In this document: piece by piece, positions 1 through 9,650 of the stretch
How positions within the stretch are numbered: the first letter of the stretch is position 1
How the letters are laid out: the number at the start of each line of letters is the position of its first letter
From: an uncultured Candidatus Saccharibacteria bacterium
GTDB taxonomy: Bacteria > Patescibacteriota > Minisyncoccia > Phycocordibacterales > CAYSCM01
NCBI GenBank assembly: GCA_964429815.1
Contig: CAYSCM010000001.1
Span: forward strand, 1-64,000
Length of the DNA stretch: 64,000 bases
Direction of reading: 5' to 3'
The notes under the pieces: model-generated
What the model was told of the DNA's origin: nothing
Seen by the model: the letters and a program-made list of their open reading frames with translations, nothing else
Database searches by the model: none
Position numbers and translations under genes: made by a program

Positions 1-3000
1 CGTTGCTTCCCGCTTGGAGACAGCCGGGGCCGGTGGCGAGGTAGAGGGCGGAGGTCGAGGCGTTCCCGGAGACGTAGAGGTTAGTCGTCGTCGCGGAGGT
101 ACCGGTGGCATTCACGAAGGTGACGTTCTGGAGGGTGGTCGAGGCGGTGACGAGGAGGTTGGTCGTGGTGGCCTGACCGGCAATGGTGAGGCCGCTGCCC
201 TGGGTTCCCCCGCCGATCGTCGAGGAGCCGGAGGAGAGGAGGGTACTGAAGGTGCCAAGCCCGGTTGAGGTGAGGTTCCCTGCGGAGAGGACGGTGGCAA
301 AGAGGTTGGTGGAGGAGGCGGTCGTTGCGAAGAAGGAGGTGCTGGTTGCCTTGGTGGTGGTGGCGTTCCCCGAGGAGATGAGGTCGATGAGGCGGGTCAC
401 CCCAGCGTCGGTCACCGAGAGGAGCGTGGTCGACGCCTGGTTGACGAGCTCGAGGGCCTTGGTGGTTGAGGAGGTGCCGCTTCCCCACAGTGTGAGCTTT
501 CCGTACCCGGGAGTCGAGGTGCCGATCGTCGTCGTGCCCGAGACGTTGAGGGCGCCGATGACCGTCGAGGAGGCCCCCGAGATGAAGCCGGTGCTCCTCC
601 AGAGGGAGGAGGTGGCGTTGGTCCAGCTGACGTAGTCGGCGAGGGCCGTGGGGACGACGTAGTCGGTGCCGGCAAGGGCTGTGGTGACCAGGCCGCTGCT
701 CGTCTTGAGCAAGCCGTCCCCGGTTCCCAGGTAGAGGTTGCTGGTCGAGGCGGTGGTGGCGAAGAGGGTCGTGGTGGTGGCGTTGGTGGCGGTGGCGTTG
801 CCGGTCACCGTGAGGGAGCCCACCGTTGAGGAGGCGCGCACCGTGAGGTAGGTGAGGGCGACGGTGCCGGTGGCGTCGATGGAGAGTGCGGAGACGGAGC
901 TGGTGGCGAAGGTGCCCGCCGAGCTCGTGGCGAGGTAGAGGTTCCCGCCGGCGTTCCTGAAGCTCCAGTGGGCGTTCCCGAGCGAGGAGGAGTCGGAGAG
1001 CGTGAGCTGGGGACCGGTCGAAGAAGCAATTTGGAGGGCCCACTGGGGAGAGGTGGTGCCGATGCCGACCTTGAGGGCCGTGTTGGGTGAGATGGCGAAG
1101 GCGTCCGTGGTGGAGGTGGCCCACTTGGAGTTGGCCTGGAGGGCGCAATTGAGGTTGGTCGAGGTGATGAGGCCGTTGCTTCCCGCTTGGAGACAGCCGG
1201 GGCCGGTGGCGAGGTAGAGGGCGGAGGTGGAGGCGGTGCCGGAGACGTAGAGGTTAGTCGTCGTCGCGGAGGTACCGGTGGCATTCACGAAGGTGACGTT
1301 CTGGAGGGTGGTCGAGGCGGTGACGAGGAGGTTGGTCGTGGTGGCCTGACCGGCAATGGTGAGGCCGCTGCCCTGGGTTCCCCCGCCGATCGTCGAGGAG
1401 CCGGAGGAGAGGAGAGTGGCGAAGGTGCCGAGTCCCGTTGAGGTGAGGTTCCCTGCGGAGAGGACGGTGGCAAAGAGGTTGGTGGAGGAGGCGGTCGTTG
1501 CGAAGAAGGAGGTGCTGGTTGCGGCGGTTGAGGTGGAGCGGGTGATGTTGGCGAAGATGGTGGCTCCCGTGAAGGTGTTGTTGTCGCTAAGGAGCGTTGA
1601 GGAGGCGGCGGTTATGCTGCTGCAGGTGACCAATCCAGAGGCGCTGGTGAGCAGGGCAGTTCCGGCGGCGCAGGGGCCGACTCCCAGGTAGAGGGCGGAG
1701 GTGGAGGCGGTGGTGGCGAAGAGGGTCGTGGTGGTGGCGTTGGTGGCGGTGGCGTTGCCGGTCACCGTGAGGGAGCCCACCGTTGAGGAGGCGCGCACCG
1801 TGAGGTAGGTGAGGGCGACGGTGCCGGTGGCGTCGATGGAGAGCGCGGTGCCCGTCGCATTGAGAGAATCCGAGCTCGTGCCGATGCGGAAGATGCCGCC
1901 GATGTTGGAGAGGAGCCAATGTTTGAGGTTAGTCCCGGCGTTGGTGTTCGTGACGGCGATGTAGGGCGTGGCGGAAGCTACCTGGAGGCTCCATGCGGGC
2001 GTCGAGGTGCCGATGCCGACCGATACCGTGTCCTTCCCTGAGGTGCCGCCAAGCACGATGGCACGACTGATGCCAACATTCGCACCTGCGCCGATCGCGG
2101 TCGAGGAGGCGATGTTGTCCACACCGGTCGAAACATCGGCGAGATTACCGACGAAGACACTCGAGCTCACGTTCGTCGGATTAAAAGCTGCGGCATAGCC
2201 GAGCGCGACGTTGTTGGAGCCCGTCTGATTGCCCAAGAGTGCTGAGTCGCCGAGAGCCACGTTGTACGAGCCGCTCGTGTTGTTCTGAAGCGCCACGTAC
2301 CCTACCGCGGTGTTGTGAGAACCGCCGTTTCCGCTGATAAGGGCCGAAGCGCCGAGCGCCGTGTTGTAGGAGCCAGTCCCGTTAGTGAAGAGCGCTGAAT
2401 CGCCGACTGCAGTGTTTTGCGTGCCCGAGGTGTTGTTGGTAAGAGCTACGTTACCGAACGCACTGTTGTTGCTGCCGCCGACGTCTTTGAGGAGCGCCTG
2501 GGAGCCAACCGCGGTGTTGGCTGTGCCTCCTGAAACAGCCTTCAGCGTGTTGTATCCAAGCGCAGTGTTGTCGGTATCACTCACGCCTGCGGCCGCACCT
2601 GAGAGAAGACCGATGTAGATGCTGTGTGAGCCCGTTGGCAATTCGACAAAACGCGTGCCGTTCCAGTAGAGACCGGTAGCAACGAAGTTCGTATCGTTGA
2701 GGGTCGAGGTGCCGGTTCCCTGAACAATGAGGTTCCCTGTTGTTGTTGCCCCACCGGAAATGGTAAGCCCTGACGCTTGGGTTCCCCCACCTATCGTCGA
2801 TGAAGCTGTCGCAAGGAATCCCCCGAGTACCTCAAGTTTGGTGTTAAGCGAGGTGGTCGCGGTGCCGCCGATCACCACCGCTAGTGCGGCATTTGGATAA
2901 ATAGTTAAACCATTGGTCGAGGTTGCAAATTTGTCGGTATTGATGCCCCCACAGGAAGCGCCCGAGACCACTCCCGACCCATTCACTTGGAGACACTGGG

Positions 3001-6000
3001 TCGACCCATTCCCCACCCCAGAGACTACGAGGGCGGAGGTGGAGGCGGTGCCCGTTACCGCCAGGGTCGTCGTGGTGGCGTTGGTGGTCGTCGCATTGAG
3101 AGCGGTGAAGTTTTGGAGCGTCGAGGAGCCGGTAGCAAGGAGGTTGCTGAAGGTGCCAAGCCCGGTTGAGGTGAGGTTCCCTGCGGAGAGGACGGTGGCA
3201 AAGAGGTTGGTGGAGCTGGCCGTGGTGGCAAAGAGGGTCGTGGTGGTGGCGTTGGTGCCGGTGGCGTTTTGGAAGTTCGTGCCCAGGCCGTCGACGTAGA
3301 AGAGCGAGGTGCTGGCGGCGTTCACGACCGAGAGGATGCGTCCCCCGGCATCGATGCTCGTCGGCGCTCCCCCGCCCCACAGCGTGAGCTTCGCGTAGCC
3401 CGTCGAGGTGCCGACCGTGGAGGAGGCGAGGCTCGTGAAGCCGCCGGTGAGGGTCGAGAGGCCGGTGACCGAAAGAGTGCTGCCGAAGGCGCCGCTCCCG
3501 CTGCTCGTGAGGTTCCCTGTCGAGAGGATGGTCGAGAAGAGGTTCGTCGAGCTCGCGGTGGTGGTGAAGAGGGTGGTTCCCGTCGCGTTGGTGAAGGTGA
3601 AGGAGCCGAGGGTGCCCACCGTGAGGGAGCCGATGGTCGCGCTGTTGGCGAAGAGGTTGGTGGTCGAGGCGTTCCCGGAGACGTAGAGGTTAGTCGTCGT
3701 CGCGGAGGTACCGGTGGCATTCACGAAGGTGACGTTCTGGAGGGTGGTCGAGGCGGTGACGAGGAGGTTGGTCGTGGTGGCCTGACCGGCAATGGTGAGG
3801 CCGCTGCCCTGGGTTCCCCCGCCGATCGTCGAGGAGCCGGAGGAGAGGAGGGTACTGAAGGTGCCAAGCCCGGTTGAGGTGAGGTTCCCTGCGGAGAGGA
3901 CGGTGGCAAAGAGGTTGGTGGAGGAGGCGGTCGTTGCGAAGAAAGAGGTGCTGGTTGCGGCGGTTGAGGTGGAGCGGGTGATGTTGGCGAAGATGGTGGC
4001 TCCCGTGAAGGTGTTGTTGTCGCTAAGGAGCGTTGAGGAGGCGGCGGTTATGCTGCTGCAGGTGACCAATCCAGAGGCGCTGGTGAGCAGGGCAGTTCCG
4101 GCGGCGCAGGGGCCGACTCCCAGGTAGAGGGCGGAGGTGGAGGCGGTGGTGGCGAAGAGGGTCGTGGTGGTGGCGTTGGTGGCGGTGGCGTTCACGAAGG
4201 TGACGTTCTGGAGGGTAGTGGAGCCGGTAGCAAGGAGGTTGCTGAAGATGCCAATCCCGGCTGAGGTGAGGTTGCCCGCGTTGATGGAGGTGGCGTAGAG
4301 ATTCGAGGTGCTTGCGACCGATGCGAAGAGGTTCGTGGTCGTCGCCGAGGAGCCTGTAGCGTTTTGGAAGGTAAGGTTCTGGAGCGTTGAGCTTCCGGTC
4401 GCCAGGAGGTTGCTGAAGGTGCCGATACCCGAGCTTGTGATATTTCCTGCGGAAAGAACCGTTGCAAAGAAGTTCGTGGAACTTGCCGTCGTCGCAAATA
4501 AGGTGGTGGTCGTCGCATTGGTGCCGGTGGCGTTGCTGAACGTGATGTTTTGGAAAGTAGAGGAAGCCGTCACGAGGAGGTTGGTGGTGGTAGCCTGGCC
4601 GAAAACCGTGAGACCGCCCCCTTGCGTACCGTTGCCGATGGTCGAAGAAGCGTAGGCGGTGAGGCCGCCGTTGAATTGCGTGAGGGTCGAGGTTGCGTTG
4701 CCCGCAAGCTGAAATGGATACGCTCCGCCACCGCCTGAGCCGCACGCCGCGCCGGTAGCTGAAACGACGCCAGTGCCGGAAATCTGGAGACACTGCGTCG
4801 AGCCGTTCCCAAGACTCGAAATGATAAGCGCAGAGGTCGAGGCGGTGCCGGAGATGGCGAGGTTTGTGGTAGTGGCATTCGTGGTCGTCGCATTGAGAGC
4901 GGTGAAGTTTTGGAGGGTCGTGGAGCCAGTGGCCAGAAGTGTGCTGAAGGTGCCAAGCCCGGTCGAGGTGATGTTACCGGCAGAGAGGACCTGGGCAAAG
5001 AGGTTGGTGGAGCTTGCGGTCGTCGTAAAGAAGTTGGTGGTCGTCGCCGAAGTACCCGTCGCATTCCCAAAGGTGAAGTTCTGGAGGGTGGTCGAGGAGG
5101 TCGCGAGGAGGTTTTGGAGCGTAAAGAGTTTCGTCGTTTTGTTGAACGTAAGCGTTGCGTCGCCGTTGAAGATTCCGCCGTCATTGAACTGCACTTGCGT
5201 GTTGCTTCCGCCCGGGTTACCCGCGCCGCCGTTGGCCGAGAGGCAGGTGCCGTTGATCGAGAAGCATCCGCCGGTGAGATTGACCCCGCTTGCGAGGGTC
5301 GAGGTGGCCGTGGTCGTCGAGACATTGAGGACCCCGACCGAAAGGCCGTTCGCGACCGTCGAGGTACCGGCCGAGGCGGAAATGGAGAGGGCGCCGGTGA
5401 GCGTTCCTCCTGAAAGCGGCAAAAAATTAAGTCCGGTGATCGAGCCAGTGAACGTGGCGTCTTTGATGGTTACACCCGAAAGATTGTCGATGCGGTTGGT
5501 GAGGGCGACGCTCTGGAAATTGGCGGGGGTGGTCGGCGCAGGGCCGCTGAACTGAGGCGTGAACGCGCCGATCGAATAGATTTGGGCGGAAAGTTTATTG
5601 TCGAGCTGGTTCAAACGCACATTGAGCTCATCCTCGGTCACACTTGCAGCGACCGGCGCGCCGGAGACGACGCGCTCGATGGTTCGTTCAACCACTTTCG
5701 TCTGAATGGGCTGAACGATGACCGTCGTACTCGCCGGATTGTACGTGTTGTTGATATTTTGAACGATCGACTGCAGGGAAGGTGCGTTTGAACGGTGCCA
5801 GAACGCGAATATGGCCCGCACCGCGTCATATACGCTCGTCGGAGAAAGCGCGAAAGCGACCTGATGCGAAGCGCTCACGAGTCCCGAGCGGATCTGCGCA
5901 ACACTTACCGAAAATGCTTGCCCAAGACTTTCATGAGCCAACGTATCACGGAGGTTTCGAGAAGAGGAAGACGCTACGGAAGAGGAAACGGCTGCAAGGG

Positions 6001-6871
6001 ATGCGGACACTTTAGAGCGACCAGCGTCTGTGAGTTTGAGGCCAGACACTAAAGACGTGCCGGCAGCGCGTCCGAGCTCAGCGCTACCAACGGAAGCGTG
6101 GAAGGAGAGAGTCCCGATAGTTTCCCCAAGCTGATGGATAACCGCCACGTACCTATCACCAAACTCTAAAACAGCGGATAGAGCCGCTCTGTGAACGTTT
6201 CCACCAAAGGCGCTCACGGCGTCGGAGAACGTCAGAGGCTCTAAGTGAAGTTCAGAGATGGTCCGGGCAAGTTCACGGCCGCTTCGATACACACCAAAAG
6301 CTGGCTCATTCGCATGAATCGCGCCGTAGGAAAGAACAACCGCAACATCACGGAGCACGTTCAACTCTCCTGGAGAAGGAGCAATGCGCTGCGCCAAGGC
6401 GTGGAATCTCTCTGCTCCGGCAAACACTCCCCCGAAGACGCTGAAAAATATAAGCGCTGCCGTCGCCACCCGAAACGCTGAAAATGCAAATATGGCCGGC
6501 TTTCGTGGGGATGTCAACGTTCTGACAGGAAAAGAAATCGGCGCAAGAGGTTCAACCACGACCTTCATCGAAGGGACGAGTCTCGTTGCCGGTTTGGAAA
6601 GAGGTCTCGCGATTGAGTGCGTGGCAGCACGATGGTACTCAGCCTTACGAGATCGACTTATTTCCGCATGGCGACGGGTAGTGCCCTCCTTTGCCTTTGC
6701 GATAAACGCGAAGAAAGATTCCTCTTCAACGTACCAGATGCGCCCGATGCGCTGCGCAGTTACCTTGCCCTGACGACATAGGCGAGCGACATAATCGTTG
6801 GTATAACCAACAGCATCCCCGGCTGCTTTTGCGGAAAGATATTTTTTATCGAGGATGAGTAGGTGACTCAT
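1..6871 (-). CDS. Giant repeat-rich surface/adhesin-like protein, partial (C-terminus beyond window start). N-terminal excisionase-type HTH (HTH_17-like), single TM helix, then >2,200 aa Thr/Ser/Asn/Ala/Gly-rich repeats with Hep_Hag/YadA-head-like and tail-fibre-like modules
   Basis: Manual translation of minus frame (codon top position = 1 mod 3): ATG at 6871-6869 preceded by in-frame TAA (6901-6899); no stop down to position 1 (no M-to-stop ORF in this frame in the ORF track because it runs off the window). N-term MSHLLILDKKYLSAKAAGDAVGYTNDYVARLCRQGKVTAQRIGRIWYVEEE = Xis-like HTH; hydrophobic KPAIFAFSAFRVATAALIFFSVFGGVFAGA = TM; downstream low-complexity repeats e.g. STLQNVTFVNATGTSATTTNLYVSG, NTAVGDSALFTNGTGSYNTALGASAL, KVGIGTTSPQWALQIASST. 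Wrong-frame ORFs in the track (His/Arg-rich, Pro-rich, Gly/Glu-rich) are artefacts of this frame. Confidence 0.75.
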   Translation of the reverse strand, partial: MSHLLILDKKYLSAKAAGDAVGYTNDYVARLCRQGKVTAQRIGRIWYVEEESFFAFIAKAKEGTTRRHAEISRSRKAEYHRAATHSIARPLSKPATRLVPSMKVVVEPLAPISFPVRTLTSPRKPAIFAFSAFRVATAALIFFSVFGGVFAGAERFHALAQRIAPSPGELNVLRDVAVVLSYGAIHANEPAFGVYRSGRELARTISELHLEPLTFSDAVSAFGGNVHRAALSAVLEFGDRYVAVIHQLGETIGTLSFHASVGSAELGRAAGTSLVSGLKLTDAGRSKVSASLAAVSSSVASSSSRNLRDTLAHESLGQAFSVSVAQIRSGLVSASHQVAFALSPTSVYDAVRAIFAFWHRSNAPSLQSIVQNINNTYNPASTTVIVQPIQTKVVERTIERVVSGAPVAASVTEDELNVRLNQLDNKLSAQIYSIGAFTPQFSGPAPTTPANFQSVALTNRIDNLSGVTIKDATFTGSITGLNFLPLSGGTLTGALSISASAGTSTVANGLSVGVLNVSTTTATSTLASGVNLTGGCFSINGTCLSANGGAGNPGGSNTQVQFNDGGIFNGDATLTFNKTTKLFTLQNLLATSSTTLQNFTFGNATGTSATTTNFFTTTASSTNLFAQVLSAGNITSTGLGTFSTLLATGSTTLQNFTALNATTTNATTTNLAISGTASTSALIISSLGNGSTQCLQISGTGVVSATGAACGSGGGGAYPFQLAGNATSTLTQFNGGLTAYASSTIGNGTQGGGLTVFGQATTTNLLVTASSTFQNITFSNATGTNATTTTLFATTASSTNFFATVLSAGNITSSGIGTFSNLLATGSSTLQNLTFQNATGSSATTTNLFASVASTSNLYATSINAGNLTSAGIGIFSNLLATGSTTLQNVTFVNATATNATTTTLFATTASTSALYLGVGPCAAGTALLTSASGLVTCSSITAASSTLLSDNNTFTGATIFANITRSTSTAATSTSFFATTASSTNLFATVLSAGNLTSTGLGTFSTLLSSGSSTIGGGTQGSGLTIAGQATTTNLLVTASTTLQNVTFVNATGTSATTTNLYVSGNASTTNLFANSATIGSLTVGTLGSFTFTNATGTTLFTTTASSTNLFSTILSTGNLTSSGSGAFGSTLSVTGLSTLTGGFTSLASSTVGTSTGYAKLTLWGGGAPTSIDAGGRILSVVNAASTSLFYVDGLGTNFQNATGTNATTTTLFATTASSTNLFATVLSAGNLTSTGLGTFSNLLATGSSTLQNFTALNATTTNATTTTLAVTGTASTSALVVSGVGNGSTQCLQVNGSGVVSGASCGGINTDKFATSTNGLTIYPNAALAVVIGGTATTSLNTKLEVLGGFLATASSTIGGGTQASGLTISGGATTTGNLIVQGTGTSTLNDTNFVATGLYWNGTRFVELPTGSHSIYIGLLSGAAAGVSDTDNTALGYNTLKAVSGGTANTAVGSQALLKDVGGSNNSAFGNVALTNNTSGTQNTAVGDSALFTNGTGSYNTALGASALISGNGGSHNTAVGYVALQNNTSGSYNVALGDSALLGNQTGSNNVALGYAAAFNPTNVSSSVFVGNLADVSTGVDNIASSTAIGAGANVGISRAIVLGGTSGKDTVSVGIGTSTPAWSLQVASATPYIAVTNTNAGTNLKHWLLSNIGGIFRIGTSSDSLNATGTALSIDATGTVALTYLTVRASSTVGSLTVTGNATATNATTTTLFATTASTSALYLGVGPCAAGTALLTSASGLVTCSSITAASSTLLSDNNTFTGATIFANITRSTSTAATSTSFFATTASSTNLFATVLSAGNLTSTGLGTFATLLSSGSSTIGGGTQGSGLTIAGQATTTNLLVTASTTLQNVTFVNATGTSATTTNLYVSGTASTSALYLATGPGCLQAGSNGLITSTNLNCALQANSKWATSTTDAFAISPNTALKVGIGTTSPQWALQIASSTGPQLTLSDSSSLGNAHWSFRNAGGNLYLATSSAGTFATSSVSALSIDATGTVALTYLTVRASSTVGSLTVTGNATATNATTTTLFATTASTSNLYLGTGDGLLKTSSGLVTTALAGTDYVVPTALADYVSWTNATSSLWRSTGFISGASSTVIGALNVSGTTTIGTSTPGYGKLTLWGSGTSSTTKALELVNQASTTLLSVTDAGVTRLIDLISSGNATTTKATSTSFFATTASSTNLFATVLSAGNLTSTGLGTFSTLLSSGSSTIGGGTQGSGLTIAGQATTTNLLVTASTTLQNVTFVNATGTSATTTNLYVSGNASTSALYLATGPGCLQAGSN
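2..350. repeat. Intragenic near-identical DNA repeat, copy A (matches 1176..1524 and 3661..3953)
   Basis: Identical 62-aa and 84-aa spurious ORFs recur at 112..300 / 1285..1473 / 3721..3909 and 14..268 / 1187..1441; direct sequence comparison shows ~300 bp identity with 1-2 mismatches. Confidence 0.85.
1176..1750. repeat. Intragenic near-identical DNA repeat, copy B (about 510 bp near-identical to 3676..4186; 1707..1852 also matches 751..896)
   Basis: ORF 1356..1691 (+) is identical in protein to 3792..4127 (+); direct comparison of the nucleotide rows. Confidence 0.85.
3661..4190. repeat. Intragenic near-identical DNA repeat, copy C
   Basis: See copies A and B; offsets are 2436 bp (B to C) and 3603 bp (A to C). 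Confidence 0.85.
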
Positions 6872-7132
6872 TGGTCGCCCACCCGAAGTGCTTATAGTTT
6901 ACGCCATCATTTCGAAAATTACCTAGAAAAAATGTGGAAAACTGGCCAGGTAATTCCTAGATATGTCGCCACACTTTTTAGCCCTTTGAATAAAGGTTTC
7001 TTAGCTAGTCCAGCGCGAGACCTGCCGAGGCTCATTTATTATTCCGCCCAGTTCAGGCCTAGATTTCTGATGCTCCTCCTGTAGTGCTTTGGCCGAGAAA
7101 TAATATGCCTTAAAACCTATATTTATATATCG

Positions 7133-8305
7133 TTAGAGCTGTAAAAGATGCCCTAGGGCCAGGTATACATTTATAGCCACATGGGCTATGAATCCAAAAG
7201 CCGCGGGAGCTGGCGGAGTCGCGATTTGTGCGATAGGCCTTGTGACGGCGTACGTGCCGCTCAAAAAGCCACTAAGAACAGCAAACAAGAAAGCCGAAAG
7301 CGCAAAGGCGGCTGCTAGGAGCTTTCCAAGGGAGCGAAGGTATCCATAGCGATCGATCGTAAGGGTCTGGGCGGTAACAACCCCAGCAGGGACCAGAAGT
7401 GCCTTTGCACCCTGCTTAGAAGGAGGCGCTGCTACTATGTCGGTCTTCATTGGTTTTGTGAGCGCAGGGATGAGTGGGTGCGCATCTGGATGATAGGTAA
7501 TGGGAACACGACGCTCACCGGAAACTATTCTTTCCTTTATTTGATCCTCATGAGGGGAAATAGGCGCAGTGGTGGCATTGAGAGCGGGAGAATTAAGCAT
7601 ATTTTGTGGGCTGTTTTTTGAAACCTCCTCACGAGATTCTCCCAAACTGACCGACAATGGCGTAGTCCCCAGATCGGCAACCGGGTGAAGCTCAGTTGAT
7701 TGAGGAGCCTCGGTGTTTGTATCCGCCTTTGCGCTCTGAGGTATGCTCTCCGGTAATAGACTCTTTTGAACCTCGGTTTCGAAAAACGTAGGCCACCATG
7801 ACAGGAGCTGGTCGGGAACATTCCCTGCCCCCGGAAGTTTGCTAGGGTTGAAAATGGATTGTTGAGGGAGTCTCTCATAGGTATGTACTCTAGCTACTAA
7901 TGGCTTTACTTGTGCCCGGGACCCTCGTTTTCGACCACGAGCTTCACGGCTGCGGTTTTTCATATACTGTTCAAGCTCCTCTGGGTCCAAAAACCATGAG
8001 CGCCCCACCAGCTTTCCCGCTACCCTTCCAGCACGGATGAGCTGACCGACGTAGTCAGACTCGTACCCGAAAAGCGCGGAGGCCTCCCGTGCAGTTATGT
8101 ATTTTTTGCCGTTGACGAAAAGAGTGTGCTCCACCCTTTCAGTATAGGGCTTTTTTTCTCGGTTACCTGAGAAATGAAGTGGATATGCTGTCAGCAAAAC
8201 TTTTCCGCGGCGTCGTTTTCTGCATTTAGGTAAGCATCCGTGCAAGGAGGTCCCGCAGAAGAACGGGATTAGCTGAGCCCTTACTTGCACGCATTCCCTG
8301 CCCAA
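7133..8305 (-). CDS. HTH_17 (excisionase-like) domain protein with Pro/Ser-rich linker and C-terminal membrane anchor; paralog of the N-terminus of the giant protein. Start uncertain: the M at 8305 overlaps the gatB 3' end by 80 nt; an in-frame TTG at 8197 is possible
   Basis: ORF track 390 aa; motif KKYITAREASALFGYESDYVGQLIRAGRVAGKLVGRSWFL parallels KKYLSAKAAGDAVGYTNDYVARLCRQGKVTAQRIGRIWYV of the giant gene; C-terminal hydrophobic LLAAAFALSAFLFAVLSGFLSG...FGFIAHVAINVYLALGHLL. Confidence 0.55.
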   Translation of the reverse strand: MGRECVQVRAQLIPFFCGTSLHGCLPKCRKRRRGKVLLTAYPLHFSGNREKKPYTERVEHTLFVNGKKYITAREASALFGYESDYVGQLIRAGRVAGKLVGRSWFLDPEELEQYMKNRSREARGRKRGSRAQVKPLVARVHTYERLPQQSIFNPSKLPGAGNVPDQLLSWWPTFFETEVQKSLLPESIPQSAKADTNTEAPQSTELHPVADLGTTPLSVSLGESREEVSKNSPQNMLNSPALNATTAPISPHEDQIKERIVSGERRVPITYHPDAHPLIPALTKPMKTDIVAAPPSKQGAKALLVPAGVVTAQTLTIDRYGYLRSLGKLLAAAFALSAFLFAVLSGFLSGTYAVTRPIAQIATPPAPAAFGFIAHVAINVYLALGHLLQL

Positions 8306-9650
8306 CCAGGTACTGAAGAGCCGTTTCCTTCCCCGCCTTGTACTCGGAGACGACCCCTGGGTTCGCTCGAATTATATCTGCGGCAATTTGAGAGAGGGCG
8401 CTTGGGTCGCTTGTCTGCAAAAGATTCTTTTCCGCAGCAATACGTGCCGGATCTCCGCCACCTTCTATCATGACCTCAAGAATTTCTTTTGCGCCGCGCG
8501 AAGAAATTTTGCTTTCGTCCAGCAATACTATCAAACCGGCGAATGCTTCCGCTGTCATCGGCAGCATCGTGAGCTCAATCCCCCGCTGTGCAAGATGGCC
8601 GCGTACGTCGGAAAGAAGATAGTTGCTTGCTCGTTGAACCGATTCCTTTTGCACAAGGTGCGATGCCGTACGCTCAAAAAATTCCGCCATCAGCATATCC
8701 GACGTCAAAAGCTGTGCATCACTTTCCTTAATGCCAAAATCGCGCTGATAGCGCGCTTGCTTCTCCCACGGAAGTTCAGCCATGTCTTGCTTGAGAGCTT
8801 CCGGTAAAAATTCCGGTATCTCCGAGCGATACAACTTTGGGAGATCGGGGTCAGGAAAATAGCGATAGTCGTGAGACTCTTCCTTGAGGCGCTGCGAAAA
8901 TGTCTGCTGCTTCCCCTCGTCCCATCCGCGTGTTTCTTGCAAAACTTTTTCACCACGTTCAAGGAGTACGCGTTGCCGATTGATTTCGAATTCGATCGCG
9001 CGCTCAACGGAGCGAAACGAGTTGAGATTTTTTACTTCGACTTTCGTCCCACGTTCATCCCCCTTCCCTACTGAGACGTTTGCTTCGATACGCATCTGGC
9101 CCTTCTCCATATTTGCCTCACCGGCTCCGAGCGTACGCAGCAGGAGCTGCAACTTGCGTGCGAAATCTCCTGCCTCCGCTGCAGTGTGAATTACCGGCTC
9201 CGTAACAAGTTCCATGAGCGGCACACCAGCCCGATTGAAATCGATGAGGCTGTAGTCATCCTTATGTTGAGAACGCGCCGTATCCTCCTCGAGGTGGACG
9301 CGTGTGAGGGATACGTTGTGAAGGTTCCCTCCCTGCACCAGAGGGTACTGATACTGGCTTATTTGATAGCCTTTGGGAATGTCCGGATAGAAGTAATTTT
9401 TGCGATCAAACTCCGTGAAATCAGCAAGCGTACCTCCGACCGCAATGCCGATTTTAAGTACGTGCTTGACTGCCTCTTTATTCACCACGGGAAGAGTGCC
9501 CGGGTGAGCCATACAGACGGGGCAAATGTTCGTATTCGCCTCCTTTTCGTCGGGGTCGTTCTTGCAACGGCAAAACATTTTCGTCGCCGTCTTAAGCTCC
9601 GCGTGAACTTCGAGGCCTATGGTTGGTCGGTATGCGCCCTCCGTTTTCAT
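8226..9650 (-). CDS. gatB: Asp-tRNA(Asn)/Glu-tRNA(Gln) amidotransferase subunit B
   Basis: 474 aa; RPTIGLEVHAEL, CPVCMAHPGTLPVVN, GatB/YqeY C-terminal region. Confidence 0.95.
   Translation of the reverse strand: MKTEGAYRPTIGLEVHAELKTATKMFCRCKNDPDEKEANTNICPVCMAHPGTLPVVNKEAVKHVLKIGIAVGGTLADFTEFDRKNYFYPDIPKGYQISQYQYPLVQGGNLHNVSLTRVHLEEDTARSQHKDDYSLIDFNRAGVPLMELVTEPVIHTAAEAGDFARKLQLLLRTLGAGEANMEKGQMRIEANVSVGKGDERGTKVEVKNLNSFRSVERAIEFEINRQRVLLERGEKVLQETRGWDEGKQQTFSQRLKEESHDYRYFPDPDLPKLYRSEIPEFLPEALKQDMAELPWEKQARYQRDFGIKESDAQLLTSDMLMAEFFERTASHLVQKESVQRASNYLLSDVRGHLAQRGIELTMLPMTAEAFAGLIVLLDESKISSRGAKEILEVMIEGGGDPARIAAEKNLLQTSDPSALSQIAADIIRANPGVVSEYKAGKETALQYLVGQGMRASKGSANPVLLRDLLARMLT

Follow-up and report, generated by a model that had tools for sequence, protein, structure and literature searches.

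At this locus, two neighbouring genes each join a helix-turn-helix (HTH) domain to a membrane segment, which raises the question of whether their products work together and on what target. Both genes lie on the minus strand of the 64,000-nucleotide stretch of DNA analysed here (the window), from an uncultured member of the Patescibacteria. A first-pass annotation had described the smaller gene as a paralogue lying directly upstream of the giant one on the same strand, an arrangement borne out here, and had proposed a regulator and anti-regulator pair of opposite topology or a heteromeric partnership. We refer to the small gene as type-1 and to the giant gene as type-2. Sequence comparison indicates that the two genes form an ancient module that is conserved in, and specific to, Patescibacteria and uncharacterised so far; in Pfam, NCBIfam and the literature on Patescibacteria we found no curated family or paper on it.

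Extent and start of the type-1 gene

The longest open reading frame (ORF) ending at 7133 on the minus strand starts at a TTG at 8305 and overlaps by 80 nt the conserved upstream neighbour gatB (8226..9650, minus strand), which is context and lies outside the module. This overlap had been reported before, together with an in-frame TTG at 8197-8195. It exists for the longest ORF but not for the likely gene, and the TTG is indeed in frame but unsupported as a start. The most likely start is the GTG at 8134, which would place the type-1 gene at 7133..8134 (minus strand, stop codon included, by ORF geometry and family consensus), encoding 333 aa and separated from gatB by 91 nt, because four lines of evidence fit this codon and argue against both TTG codons. 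All homologues begin with M-x-x-x-L-x-x-x-G-K-x-Y, with which the translation from GTG 8134, MEHTLFVNGKKY, agrees, and none of them has an N-terminal extension. In close relatives a stop codon lies just 3-13 codons upstream of the consensus N-terminus, leaving no room for such an extension. Moreover, P0001 of a public protein collection is identical to the 333-aa product, and a -10-like box described below lies at a position that suits the GTG. In Kaiserbacteria-like loci the gap to gatB measures 70-132 nt. The in-frame stretch upstream of the GTG (8135..8305, minus strand), which holds TTG 8305, TTG 8197 and the 80 nt of gatB overlap, is probably untranslated.

The shared N-terminal head

The motif KKYITAREASALFGYESDYVGQLIRAGRVAGKLVGRSWFL, on which the claim of a common N-terminus had been based, is found in the translation of the small ORF, and the claim itself holds: pairwise alignment by BLASTP gave 29% identity over 109 aa (E = 2e-13), and phmmer searches against all six-frame segments of the window (E = 1e-9 and 2e-10) recovered only these two copies in 64 kb. 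The HTH_17 assignment also applies to both proteins, though below the gathering score, as Pfam HTH_17 (PF12728, cut-off 27) gave 24.9 bits for the small protein (E = 2.4e-5, covering model positions 1-50 of 51) and 16.5 bits for the giant. The sole NCBIfam match of the small protein is the excisionase domain TIGR01764 (20 bits, cut-off 28.8, E = 6e-4), and some relatives carry a precomputed PF12728 match. Judged by these scores, the window heads are a divergent subfamily and not clean members of HTH_17 or TIGR01764. Classical MerR regulators have an effector-binding region besides a long C-terminal coiled-coil helix for dimerisation; in the window proteins a long helix follows the wing, an effector domain is absent, and neither protein matched Pfam MerR or MerR_1. 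The RodZ-type Pfam families HTH_25 and DUF4115 gave no match at E up to 1.

Both heads are confidently modelled as winged HTH domains of the BldC/Xis type. In the type-1 protein the domain covers aa 1-75 (7910..8134, minus strand; AlphaFold2, Foldseek, HTH_17 and TIGR01764), with a beta-hairpin at 4-14, helices at 15-22 and 26-34, a wing at 40-49 and a long helix at 51-75, and the AlphaFold2 model has a pLDDT of 91-98 across aa 1-70. The giant head (aa 1-88; 6608..6871, minus strand; pLDDT 91-98) has the same hairpin, HTH and wing, after which a long helix spans aa 50-88. This two-helix HTH with a beta-hairpin wing superposes on solved members of the Xis/BldC/MerR-N fold. The best Foldseek matches of the type-1 head are TraN (the top match), Pukovnik Xis, BldC, RdfS and RacA; Tn916 Xis and the RacA-DNA complex are further solved structures matched by the heads, and in a sequence search of the PDB the family profile matched only the TraN-type protein AM32 (E = 0.002).

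Across the family, the recognition helix and the wing hardly vary (G23, Y24, D27, Y28, L32, R34, K37, G44 and W47), which fits one conserved target. In 62 of 78 family proteins the first 30 residues behind the HTH carry a net positive charge, and this basic character is kept even in type-1 proteins, where the membrane is 150-250 residues away; the type-1 protein of the window has the basic tail RSREARGRKRGSRAQVK on the post-wing helix (aa 61-77; 7904..7954, minus strand), with eight K/R and one D/E. The type-1 head itself is nearly neutral (mean net charge +1), with an invariant Asp in the recognition helix.

Architecture and membrane topology

Behind its head, the type-1 protein has a disordered cytoplasmic linker (aa 78-260; 7355..7903, minus strand) with an AlphaFold2 pLDDT mostly below 50, and Pro, Ser and Thr make up 30% of aa 77-260. 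Alignment with 15 post-gatB orthologues revealed that one short linear motif in the linker is conserved among type-1 proteins. In the window it reads PTFFETEVQKSLLP (7751..7792, minus strand), and its family form Y-E-x-D-x-x-[DE]-L-[ILF]-P also occurs in P0002-P0004 and P0026-P0067. Only this motif and the architecture are kept in the linker and tail, where phmmer found no homology between the small protein and its relatives at E <= 0.01. The membrane helix has its core at aa 272-294, LLAAAFALSAFLFAVLSGFLSGT (7253..7321, minus strand; hydropathy 2.27, AlphaFold2 helix 262-297), and is flanked by three K/R before and one after. Both the Pro/Ser/Thr-rich linker and the C-terminal anchor noted earlier are present, along with a second, weaker hydrophobic helix at aa 311-332 (7139..7204, minus strand; borderline hydropathy of 1.65, AlphaFold2 helix 311-332), which may cross the membrane, enter it as a re-entrant helix or lie on the surface as a tail. 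About 35 aa of the protein lie beyond the membrane.

The type-2 gene (2..6871, minus strand) starts at ATG 6871 and continues past the window edge, so that the protein exceeds 2289 aa, laid out as HTH, membrane helix and a repeat-rich ectodomain of more than 2100 aa. Its membrane helix lies at aa ~127-153 (6413..6493, minus strand; hydropathy ~2.0, AlphaFold2 helices 131-145 and 153-163). Pfam recognised no family in the giant besides HTH_17 and gave no match at all to the ectodomain, and in the juxtamembrane region only a stretch of ~90 aa (giant aa ~370-470) matches other giants. In the 261-nt gap between the two genes, predicted RNA folding is no stabler than that of shuffled sequences (z = 0.22).

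Among 102 ORFs of the family, 91 show a hydrophobic helix behind the HTH. Across the family, K and R total 254 before this helix and 95 after it, and the HTH side is the more basic one in 74 proteins, as opposed to 6 for the other side. Because the family obeys the positive-inside rule, both proteins are predicted, as a matter of statistics, to be single-pass with the HTH in the cytoplasm. The idea of opposite topologies has to be abandoned, since hydropathy, AlphaFold2 and the positive-inside counts all place an N-terminal HTH before a membrane helix in the small and the giant protein alike; they differ in linker length and in the size of the part outside the membrane. Adjacent paralogues conserved as a pair could act as regulator and anti-regulator, the small protein without an ectodomain competing for the target of the large one, but with identical topologies and no sign of antagonism over cooperation we regard this as quite improbable.

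An old pair beside housekeeping genes

The pair was compared with 73 related loci of Patescibacteria (74 when this window is added). In 55 of the 73, gatB precedes the pair or its first gene on the same strand, and the neighbours, apart from the surface protein, are the housekeeping genes secA, obg and gatB, in an order kept in the same 55/73 proportion. We define type-1 proteins by the signature GY-x-SDYVGQL-x-R, a late membrane helix (here at aa 272) and a location after gatB, and type-2 proteins by GYT-x-DY-[VI]-x-RL-x-R, an early membrane helix (here at aa ~127), an ectodomain and a position directly downstream of type-1. The window pair shows all these features. A search for the pair elsewhere found the tandem in 24 of the 73 loci, with type-2 ectodomains from 130 to more than 2700 aa.

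When the HTH domains are compared, the nearest neighbour from another locus occupies the same position of the pair in 51 of 52 cases; the small head of the window is closest to type-1 heads (L001, 50%) and the giant head to type-2 heads (L063, 59%). The heads thus fall into two old, separate classes, and a recent or local tandem duplication is ruled out. The recurring tandem and the class separation also lend indirect support to the view that type-1 and type-2 may act together. The earlier suggestion of a membrane-associated family in which the HTH recurs as a conserved module, with adjacent paralogous genes, is thus supported; a profile search returned 8353 cluster representatives, and the membrane helix described above is frequent (91/102).

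Since the only matching families are of excisionase type, below their cut-offs, and the GTG start has no Shine-Dalgarno spacing, the small gene might be taken for a wrongly called ORF, for a pseudogene or for what is left of a prophage excisionase. We consider this extremely improbable: the 333-aa ORF is intact, its architecture is kept in relatives, the family is represented 8353 times with the post-gatB position in 55/73 loci, and the promoter geometry is conserved, including at the GTG starts of loci L006 and L007. A prophage excisionase is ruled out by the housekeeping neighbours and by the viral sequences, as no relative of the family was found among the 2.9 million viral contigs of IMG/VR. 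An excisionase or recombination directionality factor would be expected to share a prophage or integrative element with an integrase, and no recombinase or mobile element lies near the pair.

Signals upstream of the type-1 gene

The sequence TATACT (8141..8146, minus strand), which resembles a -10 box, lies 6 nt before GTG 8134, and 57 of the 74 loci have a TA[TC]A[AC]T box 6-16 nt ahead of their start codon. Such a placement would give a leaderless or near-leaderless mRNA. GTG 8134 lacks Shine-Dalgarno spacing. Further upstream lies the imperfect inverted repeat TTCTCAGG-TAA-CCGAGAA (8156..8173, minus strand), at the place where relatives have ATCTCGG(N3-5)CCGAGAT or CCGAGAT as a half-site. 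The repeat is not significant by itself (34 comparable matches versus 24.6 in shuffled sequences), and the information lies in its position alone. Still further upstream is TATCCAC (8179..8185, minus strand), a core resembling a DnaA box, at the position of a TTATCCACA-like element in relatives. That element is enriched upstream of type-1 genes (47/74 loci versus 2.2% of background windows) and stays at background level outside the type-1 promoter region in ~850 kb of related loci. The resemblance to a DnaA box raised the idea of a replication origin in the gap between gatB and type-1, which is rejected, as a locus usually has no more than one or two such boxes.

Within the coding region, an ATCTCG element is preserved by codon choice in 40 of 47 genes, against 3% expected. 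Together with the conserved promoter and the operator-like repeats, this pattern indicates that the type-1 locus is specifically controlled by some DNA-binding protein. This protein need not be the module itself: in 31 of the relatives' loci a soluble 80-aa MerR-type protein (Pfam MerR match) is encoded divergently, and CCGAGAT/ATCTCGG sites occur in 22 of these 31 loci as opposed to 15 of the 43 others, so that the sites may be bound by the MerR-type protein rather than by the heads of the module. A scan for consensus promoters and terminators (6700-8400) found nothing on the minus strand, Rfam found nothing in 6600-8500, and the k-mers shared upstream of type-2 genes were AT-rich words only.

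A possible membrane-tethered DNA-binding pair

We infer, with a probability of about 40%, that the two proteins form a membrane-tethered DNA-binding pair through which transcription is controlled by the state of the surface protein. Type-1 would contribute a cytoplasmic winged HTH with its basic helix, a 200-aa disordered linker bearing the short motif and a tail anchor; in type-2, a cytoplasmic winged HTH with its basic helix would be connected by a short linker to the membrane helix, beyond which a large ectodomain extends at the surface. Both heads would bind DNA along the cytoplasmic side of the membrane, probably side by side, like BldC and Xis monomers on repeated sites, and the small protein and the giant fibre protein would form one membrane-tethered assembly on DNA. 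The likeliest output would be transcription that follows the state of the surface protein, with a logic as in ToxR/CadC.

DNA binding is suggested by the nearest solved structures, which are binders of double-stranded DNA of the Xis/MerR-N class, by the basic tail and by the near-invariant recognition helix and wing, and pairing by the order in 24/73 loci and the 51/52 separation of classes. The predicted topology with the head inside, the conserved promoter of the type-1 gene with its operator-like repeats and the non-mobile setting fit this reading as well. On the other side stand the HTH_17 and excisionase scores under the curated cut-offs, the near-neutral type-1 head with its invariant Asp, and the degenerate operator-like repeat of the window. 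Moreover, the passage of a signal from a 2000-aa fibre via a single membrane helix lacks an explanation.

The likeness to BldC of Streptomyces, the Xis proteins of Pukovnik and Tn916, and RdfS lies in the fold of the head. These are soluble proteins of 50-70 aa, whereas in the window a basic helix, a linker and a membrane helix are attached to the head, and type-2 adds thousands of residues outside the cell; identity is only 17-27%, and the window head has an extra N-terminal beta-hairpin. TraN/AM32 of Enterococcus conjugative plasmids has two tandem heads per chain, as do many members of the family, in which the tandem copies resemble the TraN internal dimer; the window proteins have one each. 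TraN is a cytosolic repressor of the plasmid transfer operon (PMC10877727) without the membrane anchor of the window proteins.

In ToxR/CadC proteins, an N-terminal DNA-binding domain in the cytoplasm is connected by a linker to a single membrane helix, and the C-terminal part lies outside the cytoplasm (PMC5430869). The window proteins share this architectural logic, being by the charge statistics single-pass with the N-terminus inside. However, the DNA-binding domain of ToxR/CadC is an OmpR-type winged helix and their periplasmic sensor is folded, whereas the window head is of the Xis/MerR type and the outside part is almost absent in type-1 or a giant repeat fibre in type-2. Membership in the ToxR family is ruled out, as the OmpR/PhoB-type domain is not matched (HTH_17 is the only Pfam match, and the fold is that of Xis/BldC).

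The same heads could instead have no part in gene regulation and serve as a tether, by which the nucleoid or a particular region of the chromosome is held to the membrane and to the foot of the giant fibres. In Bacillus, the MerR-type winged HTH of RacA ties DNA to the cell pole, RacA itself being soluble and reaching the membrane via DivIVA, and Noc brings DNA to the membrane through an amphipathic helix and a ParB-type domain. RacA in complex with DNA is one of the structures matched by the window heads. The recognition helix is near-invariant over thousands of proteins and both classes, as in site-specific architectural proteins and unlike diversifying regulators; the family is very large and adjoins core genes, and type-1 has almost nothing outside the cell for sensing. 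RacA, Noc and the module would have in common that DNA is held at the membrane, but a repeated chromosomal site was not found for the module, the enriched motif being at background outside the type-1 promoter (~850 kb). DNA binding by the heads is putative here as well, and tight, conserved control of the type-1 promoter is more typical of a regulatory gene. We see this structural role as possible, though on the doubtful side.

It might also be that the HTH no longer acts on DNA. RodZ is bitopic: its N-terminal HTH lies in the cytoplasm, and the protein has a single membrane helix with a charged region next to the membrane (PMC6946637, PMC9804626). Its membrane-tethered HTH binds a protein, MreB, and not DNA (PMC6946637). 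By analogy, the heads could dock a conserved cytoplasmic protein, for example a cytoskeletal, divisome or secretion component, with the acidic L-I-P motif as a second dock. The layout of cytoplasmic HTH, linker and one membrane helix is that of RodZ, a conserved short motif sits in a disordered cytoplasmic linker, the type-1 head is near-neutral with its invariant Asp, and an invariant surface suits a protein partner equally well as a DNA site. However, the RodZ head is of the all-helical Xre type and those of the window are winged and Xis/BldC-like, so that the presence of the wing and the lack of a RodZ-specific Pfam match rule out the RodZ family. The close structural relatives all bind double-stranded DNA, a basic tail immediately follows the head, and no candidate partner was identified. 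A protein adaptor is, on balance, unlikely.

A bolder picture, which we offer as speculation with a low probability, is that of a two-protein system dedicated to this purpose in Parcubacteria. Giant host-contact fibres would be joined directly to the chromosome via one membrane helix and a BldC/Xis-like head, co-assembled on DNA with the head of the small tail-anchored partner, and surface attachment or tension would be read on DNA without two-component systems, or else the site of attachment would determine where the chromosome lies. The acidic L-I-P motif of the small partner would recruit a further cytoplasmic factor.

Implications for Patescibacteria

Parcubacteria and related ultra-small bacteria have tiny genomes with few recognisable regulators and appear to live attached to other cells, and their surface biology is almost entirely not understood. 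In the module, the same DNA-binding-type head is carried by a tail-anchored protein and by proteins with thousands of extracellular residues. Since the heads are small, well-modelled and can be made in E. coli, the question of whether they bind DNA or protein, and at which sites, is testable without culturing these organisms. The corrected gene model, the two paralogue classes and the promoter elements can serve the annotation of thousands of proteins now called hypothetical. Conserved in the group and lying beside core genes, the module is a concrete candidate for a connection between surface and genome.

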